From NCBI RefSeq assembly GCF_030013205.1, contig NZ_CP122648.1: a stretch of 64,000 nt of DNA. One strand, given 5' to 3'. Both the position numbers and the translations under genes were made by a program. Of the stretch, positions 21,297 to 22,010 are shown piece by piece. This DNA is from Escherichia coli (lineage in GTDB: Bacteria > Pseudomonadota > Gammaproteobacteria > Enterobacterales > Enterobacteriaceae). The notes beneath the pieces were generated by a model. That model saw only the letters and a list, made by a program, of their open reading frames with translations. It was not told the DNA's origin and searched no databases. The stretch's first letter is position 1. Every line of letters starts with the position of its first letter.

Positions 21297-22010
21297 ATGG
21301 CTGTTGTCTGTTCAGTTATCATGGTTTGCTCCCCAATTAATATTTTTCTTGAAAAGGATACGTTGTCACTTAAGCCCGGCTCAGTTGTTTTGGCCACCAA
21401 ATGCATCAGGGAGCTTTTCCTTATGCATTATGGCAAAGTTAAAATTGTCGATATAAACCATTCTATAGTAAGTCAATATCTGGAAAGTCAGCATAAGCTG
21501 ACAAGAACTCCTCTGACTGACATTCCGCTTTACTTGTCGCAGGAACCCAACAATCCTGCGTTGGCTGTGGCTTTAATTACCAGCCAGAGACTTTCCGGAG
21601 AGACCACGGACATGTTTCTTATGATGGCCTGCCTGTCGTTGTTTGAATCAGATGAACGGATGTTATTATTTTTAAGTGGATGTTTATCCAGTATAAGTGC
21701 CAAAGTCAGAGCGATAATTCAAACAGATATATCAGCAAGCTGGACGCTTGGTGCGATTGCTCTACAGTTGCATATGAGTGAGAGCTTGTTAAAGAAAAAA
21801 CTCAAGGATGAAGGTCTCAGGTTCAGTAATTTGTTACTTGAGGAACGGATGCGGGTTGCTGTAAATATGTTATGCTCCCGGCATGGATATGGACAGGCTG
21901 TAGCAGAAAAATGCGGTTATTCAAGTAGATCCTACTTTATCTCTGTATTTCACCGCTATTATGGCTTCCCGCCAGACAGATATGTATCTATGCAAGGGCT
22001 TGATTTTTGA
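21297..22010 (+). CDS. AraC-family transcriptional regulator (AppY/GadX-like prophage cargo)
   Basis: 237-aa ORF; C-terminal AraC HTH signature (AEKCGYSSRSYFISVFHRYYGFPP); N-terminus resembles prophage-encoded AppY-type regulators. Confidence 0.7.
   Translation: MAVVCSVIMVCSPINIFLEKDTLSLKPGSVVLATKCIRELFLMHYGKVKIVDINHSIVSQYLESQHKLTRTPLTDIPLYLSQEPNNPALAVALITSQRLSGETTDMFLMMACLSLFESDERMLLFLSGCLSSISAKVRAIIQTDISASWTLGAIALQLHMSESLLKKKLKDEGLRFSNLLLEERMRVAVNMLCSRHGYGQAVAEKCGYSSRSYFISVFHRYYGFPPDRYVSMQGLDF

Follow-up and report, generated by a model that had tools for sequence, protein, structure and literature searches.

Which regulator is encoded between the antiterminator gene Q and the lysis genes of a prophage in Escherichia coli contig NZ_CP122648.1 (assembly GCF_030013205.1), and does it serve the host, the phage, or neither? 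The DNA analysed, hereafter the window, is a stretch of 64,000 nucleotides, and the gene in question lies at positions 21297-22010. An earlier note, made from the letters alone, described its product as an AppY-like regulator of the AraC family, carried as cargo and belonging to a kind known to rewire acid-resistance or virulence regulons. The last point is borne out by published reviews: the prophage AraC-type regulators AppY, PatE, PsrA, and PsrB are established phage cargo that rewires acid resistance and virulence in the host (PMC10877973, PMC8565820). The analysis presented here points to a functional prophage regulator of the PsrA/PsrB group, likely expressed from a sigma70 promoter as an AT-rich moron and activating the host acid-fitness genes gadE and hdeA. 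We put the probability of this reading, which draws on characterised relatives, at roughly three in four.

An intact AraC/XylS gene

The open reading frame (ORF) of 237 amino acids (aa) and its C-terminal AraC helix-turn-helix (HTH), as first described, were recovered by ORF calling and by Pfam, with residues 155-229 matching HTH_AraC (2.2e-12, 47.2 bits, cut-off 26.6) and HTH_18 (2.3e-10, 41.1 bits, cut-off 33.6). AraC/XylS-family proteins share a C-terminal domain of ~100 residues with two HTH motifs, and the window protein has such a domain. In RefSeq, the same coding sequence is annotated as WP_096098552.1, a 'helix-turn-helix domain-containing protein', in genomes that match over 1.7 kb at 100% identity. 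The N-terminus had been likened to those of AppY and GadX; this is confirmed by the NCBIfam model of YdeO, which aligned over residues 1-229, i.e. the full length, and by an alignment, A2, of 36 sequences of the GadW/YdeO/AppY/PatE/Psr subfamily. The C-terminal half also matches the models of GadX, HilD, and other regulators, always far under the equivalog cut-offs; assignment as a YdeO equivalog (NF007407, 109.9 bits vs a cut-off of 348) or a GadX equivalog (NF007432, 91.1 bits vs 500) was rejected.

Whether the DNA-binding domain might be broken, a possibility raised at the outset, was examined with A2 and with a structural model, and in both the domain is intact. No frameshift or truncation of the window ORF was found among the 36 aligned sequences, and the near-invariant residues are all kept: C5, W149, S161, S163, K166, L169, E172, R184, M185, A188, C206, G207, S212, Y213, F214, F218, and P226. 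By alignment, K166 corresponds to K170 of AppY, a residue that was chosen by alignment as potentially DNA-binding and changed to Glu for a DNA-binding-defective control (PMC10057817). The nearest solved structures by sequence are those of the GadX DNA-binding domain (3mkl, 1.3e-19), Rns, CsvR, and ToxT. An AlphaFold2 model built on A2, with a mean predicted local distance difference test (pLDDT) score of 86.5, has six beta-strands over residues 3-82, followed by linker helices (87-129) and by a two-HTH domain of seven helices. When the model was compared with the PDB by Foldseek, its DNA-binding domain fitted GadX 3mkl with a root-mean-square deviation of 1.2-1.4 and a TMt of 0.89-0.90, and the best full-length matches were Rns, CsvR, and ToxT (E 6e-11 to 2e-7). 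The window ORF is a real, intact gene with a complete two-HTH AraC/XylS DNA-binding domain.

Assignment to the PsrA/PsrB group

A BLASTP comparison with AppY, PatE, GadX, and YdeO, as proposed in the earlier note, was carried out with GadW added. Identity to the window protein is 30.5% for AppY, 29.7% for YdeO, and 35.3% for GadW, the last two over the full length, and 39.0% for GadX over residues 75-229 only; YbcM reaches 25%. In the case of PatE, the comparison was made with ECs_0287 of strain Sakai (37.9%, full length), the sole AraC-type gene of prophage Sp1 in that strain and therein a candidate PatE. Far higher values came from the homologue in phage phiSTEC1575-Stx2k (94.5%) and from two copies in strain EDL933, WP_000261909.1 (locus L007, 9001-9714) and WP_000301797.1 (locus L015, 30275-30988), each 91.6% identical to the window protein. 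The description as AppY-like is thus right at the level of the subfamily and wrong as to the nearest relative, AppY standing at 30.5% against 91.6% for the pair identified below as PsrA and PsrB.

The two copies are the only places in EDL933 that match the gene, and they are 90.7% identical to each other. PsrB (z2104, on O-island OI-57) has been described as the closest homologue of PsrA (z1789), with 90% identity (PMC10877973, PMC8565820). The copy WP_000301797.1 lies at 1,905,274-1,905,987 of CP008957.1, within the limits published for OI-57 (1,849,324-1,929,825; PMC8565820), and the other lies in a different prophage that has been rearranged by IS629 and ISEc8 (L007, NZ_CP120944.1 3389068-3407781). 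Because there are two copies, their mutual identity agrees with the published figure, and one of them falls within OI-57, they were equated with PsrA and PsrB; the assignment goes by these correspondences rather than by a named sequence record, and for PsrA the mapping is indirect. As the window protein shows to both copies the ~90% identity that links PsrA to PsrB, it can be classed by sequence as a member of the PsrA/PsrB group, forming a third allele type together with the allele of the Stx2k phage. The group itself is a branch of the GadW/YdeO/AppY/PatE subfamily, with which it shares an N-terminal domain of ~130 residues that begins MxxVCSV(I/V), contains C5, near-invariant in A2, and can be aligned over the full length. 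Among 1.84 billion representative proteins, 1975 matches were obtained at E<=1e-3, and 8 clusters fell below 1e-30. Only ~25 of the 1975 cover the N-terminal domain, which is therefore confined to a narrow subfamily.

Substitution patterns add to this picture. The ratio of nonsynonymous to synonymous substitution rates (dN/dS) of the window gene is 0.17-0.19 against its homologues and 0.18-0.19 overall against PsrA/B, so the gene is constrained and not a chance ORF; such values indicate purifying selection on a functional gene. Against PsrA/B, dN/dS is 0.30-0.32 in the N-terminal domain and 0.11-0.12 in the DNA-binding domain, and dS is about three-fold higher in the latter segment (0.36-0.41 vs 0.12-0.15). 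The first HTH motif (HTH1) reads LLKKKLKDEGLRFSN in the window and Stx2k alleles and LLK(I/T)KLKNEG(H/G)MFSR in the PsrA, PsrB, and O103 type, the window type being nearer the consensus of GadW/GadX/YdeO (KKKL). Given the contrast in dS between segments and the distinct HTH1 sequences, the alleles are recombinant mosaics with two types of DNA-binding domain.

Genes of the Psr type were found in 725 of the 5426 complete E. coli genomes at a nucleotide identity of ~88% or higher (megablast, near mode), with a median of 2 and a maximum of 4 copies per genome; the genomic copies number 1323. Matches of >=99% nucleotide identity were obtained in 27 records of complete E. coli genomes, and the exact window protein is present on 790 contigs of a large collection, never under a specific name; in PHROGs it falls in phrog_1450 (5e-93), a family of 'unknown function'. 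The Psr type is therefore common in E. coli, usually in two copies, and is annotated everywhere only as a 'helix-turn-helix domain-containing protein' or as a PHROGs family of unknown function. All the 100%-identical genomes are porcine enterotoxigenic (ETEC) or oedema-disease E. coli (K_EC180, the ETEC17xx/40xx series, O139:H1, O141:H4, and UMNF18), and the window belongs to this lineage. The Psr type thus extends past enterohaemorrhagic E. coli (EHEC) to porcine ETEC/oedema-disease strains and to a phage carrying the Shiga toxin gene stx2k, where it stands beside toxin genes. The window gene is an uncharacterised new allele of a known and common kind, and no new biology is implied.

A conserved cassette in the late region

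The surroundings of the gene were compared in an alignment, A1, of five loci, among which there are four different Q genes. In A1, homology begins at a terminator hairpin, the left boundary of the module, and continues through a small winged helix-turn-helix (wHTH) ORF, a promoter-like site, the AraC gene, and a tRNA-Ile2 gene. Since homology starts at the hairpin despite the different Q genes, the stretch from the terminator to tRNA-Ile2 behaves as a mobile cassette. The cassette and its synteny recur in EDL933, O103:H2 strain 12009, and phage phiSTEC1575-Stx2k, in the order Q, terminator, small wHTH ORF, promoter-like site, AraC gene, tRNA-Ile2 with further tRNA genes, and lysis genes; tRNA-Ile2 is the invariant 3' partner of the AraC gene in all five loci. 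In phiSTEC1575-Stx2k the cassette is followed by two tRNA-Arg genes and stx2k, and at the EDL933 and O103:H2 loci by tRNA genes, a SASA esterase gene, lysis genes, and a PerC/Pch gene. As a side observation, phiSTEC1575-Stx2k has two copies (6738-7640) of the hairpin at the start of the cassette, one on either side of an extra ORF of 426 bp, which suggests a recombination joint for moron insertion.

The window gene, like other Psr genes, lies in the late region of a lambdoid prophage, downstream of Q and ahead of the lysis genes, where Stx phages carry stx. The earlier placement of the gene downstream of a Q-like gene and its terminator (Q ends at 20771, and the hairpin follows at 20855-20878) and its description as cargo ahead of the late operon both agree with this position before the lysis genes. 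The part of the cassette that comprises the terminator and the small ORF is present in 2140 of the 5426 E. coli genomes vs 725 for the AraC gene, which is therefore an optional addition. AppY, ECs_0287, and a ~38% homologue in phage mEp332 are encoded elsewhere, close to the att end of the prophage and past its tail-fibre genes.

Expression signals

Independent expression had been suggested as possible from the position of the gene beyond the terminator, a position that does not by itself imply it: lying downstream of Q, pR', and tR', the AraC gene belongs to the Q-antiterminated late unit. Support for the idea comes instead from a candidate sigma70 promoter, which is placed 36 bp upstream of the ATG in four divergent loci. 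In all 4 of the 4 loci scanned, namely the window, the two EDL933 copies (L015 30212-30239, the OI-57 locus, and L007 8938-8965), and the Stx2k phage (L002 7938-7965), the element ATGA(G/T)A-16-TATAAT is found at an identical offset, and its TATAAT -10 sequence is invariant in all five loci of A1. Between the small ORF and this site, a further hairpin terminator (GCCTTC..GAAGGC and a T run) is present at L007 8850-8867 and L002 7851-7868 and degenerate in the OI-57 copy (L015). In the window, neither the terminator scan nor RNA folding detected a hairpin before the AraC promoter; a 36-bp deletion has taken it out. The GC content is 0.39-0.42 across the AraC gene vs 0.50-0.58 in the flanking phage genes, a low value typical of acquired DNA silenced by H-NS, which probably applies here as well.

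For the late transcript, a site placed like lambda pR', immediately past the Q gene, is a candidate late promoter by analogy. The hairpin beyond it is a candidate tR'-like terminator, and the RNA of 20805-20890, which contains it, folds at -23.3 kcal/mol (z = -2.07).

Predicted function and alternative explanations

On the preferred reading, the regulator would be a low-GC moron in the conserved cassette that separates Q from the lysis genes. Homology to PsrB, PsrA, PatE, and AppY predicts that the lysogen expresses it from a sigma70 promoter of its own, with an AT-rich promoter region that is probably H-NS-silenced and stress-responsive. It would bind AT-rich sequences in the promoters of gadE and hdeA and so raise glutamate-dependent acid resistance. 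If Q were expressed, Q-modified RNA polymerase would also read through the AraC gene from the pR'-like promoter past the tR'-like terminator. Among the precedents, PsrB directly binds the hdeA and gadE promoters and PsrA induces GadE and YhiF (PMC10877973, PMC8565820), PatE reportedly activates gadE, gadBC, and hdeAB (PMC10877973), and gadE is a direct AppY target (PMC10057817). As the hdeA-hdeD-gadE region is found in 5410 of the 5426 complete genomes, the predicted targets are almost certainly present in the host of the window. In LEE-positive strains (LEE, locus of enterocyte effacement), the same cascade would repress type III secretion via GadE and YhiF, and this effect of Psr regulators is relevant only to such strains. 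Porcine ETEC such as UMNF18 are not known to carry LEE.

Several points weigh against this reading. The published placement of psrA (z1789, OI-50) was not reproduced in the resequenced EDL933 genome: neither the annotation nor tblastn revealed a Psr-type gene in its OI-50 (CP008957.1 1,630,000-1,665,000, containing nleL), where none stands between Q and the SASA esterase gene. The output of the window gene may be low, since its Shine-Dalgarno sequence is weak, rare codons are frequent (ATA for 5 of 15 Ile, AGA or AGG for 7 of 12 Arg), and the cassette no longer has the Arg tRNAs of its canonical form, although Ile2(CAU) is still supplied. In addition, the HTH1 recognition helix and adjacent residues differ from those of PsrA/B at five positions, K167 (I/T in PsrA/B), D171 (N), L174 (H/G), R175 (M), and N178 (R). 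These changes, along with the high dS of the DNA-binding domain, leave room for a regulon that could differ from that of PsrA/B.

A silent relic, intact by recent descent only and without phenotype in this host, is an unlikely explanation, even though the prophage that carries the gene is a defective remnant. Integrated at tRNA-Ser on the mtfA side, it retains ~19.8 kb (~6900-26800), with a frameshifted integrase gene and an IS1 element within a DUF1482 gene, and it ends directly after the large terminase subunit, followed by zinT, with no structural genes. The small ORF adjacent to the AraC gene is a pseudogene, the weak ribosome-binding site, the rare codons, and the lost Arg tRNAs fit a silent gene, and deletion of psrB alone in EDL933 had little effect on secretion (PMC10877973). 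Yet dN/dS values of 0.11-0.19 across alleles speak of long-term constraint, the promoter-like site is conserved, and the ORF has stayed intact amid several decayed neighbours. AppY, moreover, is a case of an active regulator in a dead prophage (PMC10057817).

A variant of the Psr assignment is also improbable, namely that the allele shared by the window and the Stx2k phage is a functionally distinct third Psr type, which could recognise other promoters and, in LEE-negative porcine ETEC and Shiga toxin-producing E. coli (STEC), link a stress or virulence regulon of the host to the induction of the prophage or the activity of Q. The distinct type is proposed because the DNA-binding-domain segment derives from a distinct lineage of greater age and carries the five HTH1 changes, and the coupling because the gene sits in the stx slot of a Q-dependent late transcript with its upstream terminator deleted.

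It is quite improbable that the protein is directed at the phage, regulating cassette or phage genes such as the tRNA genes, the lysis genes, or stx in Stx phages, with any effect on the host being incidental. The strict synteny with Q, tRNA-Ile2, and lysis genes across different prophages would be expected of such a regulator, as would its place immediately upstream of the tRNA genes and stx2k in an inducible Stx2k phage, and phrog_1450 is a phage-wide family to which no function is assigned. However, the gene is found in 725 genomes compared with 2140 for the upstream small-ORF module, and since many otherwise similar late regions lack it, EDL933 OI-50 among them, it is dispensable for phage late functions. 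The gene is also intact and 100% identical in 27 genomes, in a remnant that has no structural genes, and host targets have been reported for PsrA, PsrB, PatE, and AppY (PMC10877973, PMC10057817). Finally, an orthologue of AppY controlling hya, cbdAB-appA, and related AppY targets, which would share the overall architecture, the N-terminal MxxVCSVI motif, and the carriage by a prophage, is very improbable and was rejected, being disfavoured already by identity (30.5% vs 91.6% for PsrA/B, 38% for the PatE candidate, and 35% for GadW) and by the different location of AppY, which is encoded beyond the tail-fibre genes at the extreme right of DLP12, outside the Q-lysis slot.

The prophage remnant and its other features

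Besides the AraC gene, Q and the lysis genes are still present in the remnant, as is an immunity region of the Rac-like type that includes a YdaT-family gene. The features around the AraC gene are collected in Table 1.

Table 1. Coordinates of the regulator gene, its protein domains, and neighbouring features in the window
Feature	Position	Strand	Basis or remark
Psr-type AraC/XylS regulator gene	21297..22010	+	ATG to TGA, 237 aa
N-terminal beta-sandwich and helical linker	residues ~1-130 of Psr-type protein
Two-HTH DNA-binding domain	residues ~131-232 of Psr-type protein
Candidate sigma70 promoter of AraC gene, ATGAGA-16-TATAAT	21234..21261	+	10/12 matches; 36 bp upstream of ATG
DUF968 gene	18685-19740
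RusA	19741-20106
Late-gene antiterminator Q, 224 aa	20097..20771	+	phrog_304 'anti-termination protein Q-like' 4.3e-108, full length; RefSeq 'bacteriophage antitermination protein Q'
Candidate late promoter, pR'-like, TTGCAA-17-TATATT	20776..20804	+	consensus scan 9/12; 5 bp past Q stop
Intrinsic-terminator-like hairpin, AAAACCCGCC..GGCGGGTTTT and T run	20855..20878	+	terminator scan; tR'-like candidate
Remnant of small winged-helix ORF (phrog_331, 'TrmB family', 65 aa when intact)	20999..21180	+	alignment A1
tRNA with CAU anticodon, ileZ-type tRNA-Ile2, reads AUA	22037..22112	+	ARAGORN; Rfam 72.6 bits; RefSeq tRNA-Ile
Degenerate tRNA-like sequence in tRNA-Arg slot of EDL933/Stx2k-phage modules	22113..22192	+	alignment A1
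tRNA-Thr(UGU)	22193-22268	+	ARAGORN; Rfam 73.8 bits; RefSeq
tRNA-Gly(UCC)	22272-22346	+	ARAGORN; Rfam 65.6 bits; RefSeq

The small wHTH ORF is dead in the window: codon 5 is a stop, 1 bp has been lost, and the 36-bp deletion takes its terminator hairpin as well. RefSeq labels it 'TrmB family transcriptional regulator, frameshifted'. Its intact counterpart at the OI-57 locus of EDL933 (L015:29942-30139) matches phrog_331 at 3.9e-37 and Pfam TrmB at 0.0021, below the cut-off. On the other side of the AraC gene, tRNA-Thr and tRNA-Gly occupy the place that the second tRNA-Arg has in the canonical module. The degenerate sequence between tRNA-Ile2 and tRNA-Thr folds at -29.6 kcal/mol (z = -3.96), with changes in the anticodon stem that look compensatory; neither ARAGORN nor the Rfam tRNA model (E<=1) called it as a tRNA.

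Downstream of the tRNA genes come holins, an M15 endolysin, an HNH gene, and terminase genes. A non-coding gap of ~420 bp on the plus strand separates tRNA-Gly from the holin gene (22347-22770); it corresponds to the stx position of Stx phages and contains several terminator-like hairpins, e.g. at 22609-22628. A match to the GcvB model at 22449-22637 is sub-threshold (19.4 bits, E 0.26) and probably due to chance. The Rfam scan of 20000-23000 gave nothing above threshold beyond the three tRNAs, and sub-threshold matches to STnc370, the Trp leader, and isrJ at the terminator were treated as chance. Between the replication and nin-like genes, the minus strand carries a Cys-rich ORF of 269 aa (16984-17793), a 'hypothetical protein' in RefSeq with no Pfam match, possibly a moron or defence gene.

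Comparison with known systems

For the window, the value of the analysis lies in a better annotation, PsrA/PsrB-type rather than AppY-like, and in a testable prediction, the control of the GAD and hdeA genes by a regulator that survives in a dead prophage. Its known counterparts are found at several distances. The virulence regulators Rns/CfaD, CsvR, and ToxT, AraC-type proteins with fatty-acid-binding N-terminal domains, are the most remote, with 15-21% identity and a sequence match over window residues ~104-232; the N-terminal domain of the window protein is ~30 residues shorter, and no sequence-level match of it to the ligand pocket of Rns or ToxT was established. GadW, GadX, and YdeO are chromosomal acid-fitness regulators, whereas the window gene lies outside the acid fitness island.

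AppY, encoded by prophage DLP12 of K-12, has the same two-domain layout as the window protein, with K170 in the place of K166, and is likewise prophage-borne. Unlike the window gene, it is located at the right end of its prophage after tfaX, and its additional targets (hya, app, biofilm, and motility) are not assumable for the window protein. PatE (z0321, OI-8), with ECs_0287 as its candidate, belongs to the same subfamily at 38% identity over the full length, and the candidate gene sits at the tail-fibre/att end of Sp1.

The closest counterparts are PsrA (z1789) and PsrB (z2104) of EHEC O157:H7 EDL933, from which the window differs in its lineage, porcine ETEC/STEC, and in the state of its prophage, a remnant in which the upstream ORF and terminator are deleted. 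The tRNA set is Ile-Thr-Gly in the window vs Ile-Arg-Arg in the PsrA/PsrB module, and the effector loci and pch/PerC genes near the Psr genes of EHEC are absent from the window because the prophage is truncated. These local deviations, such as the type of DNA-binding domain, the loss of the upstream terminator, and the change in the tRNA set, are modest. Both PsrA and PsrB have 237 aa, as does the window protein, and the cassette, the slot between Q and the lysis genes, and the -10 element are the same in all of them.

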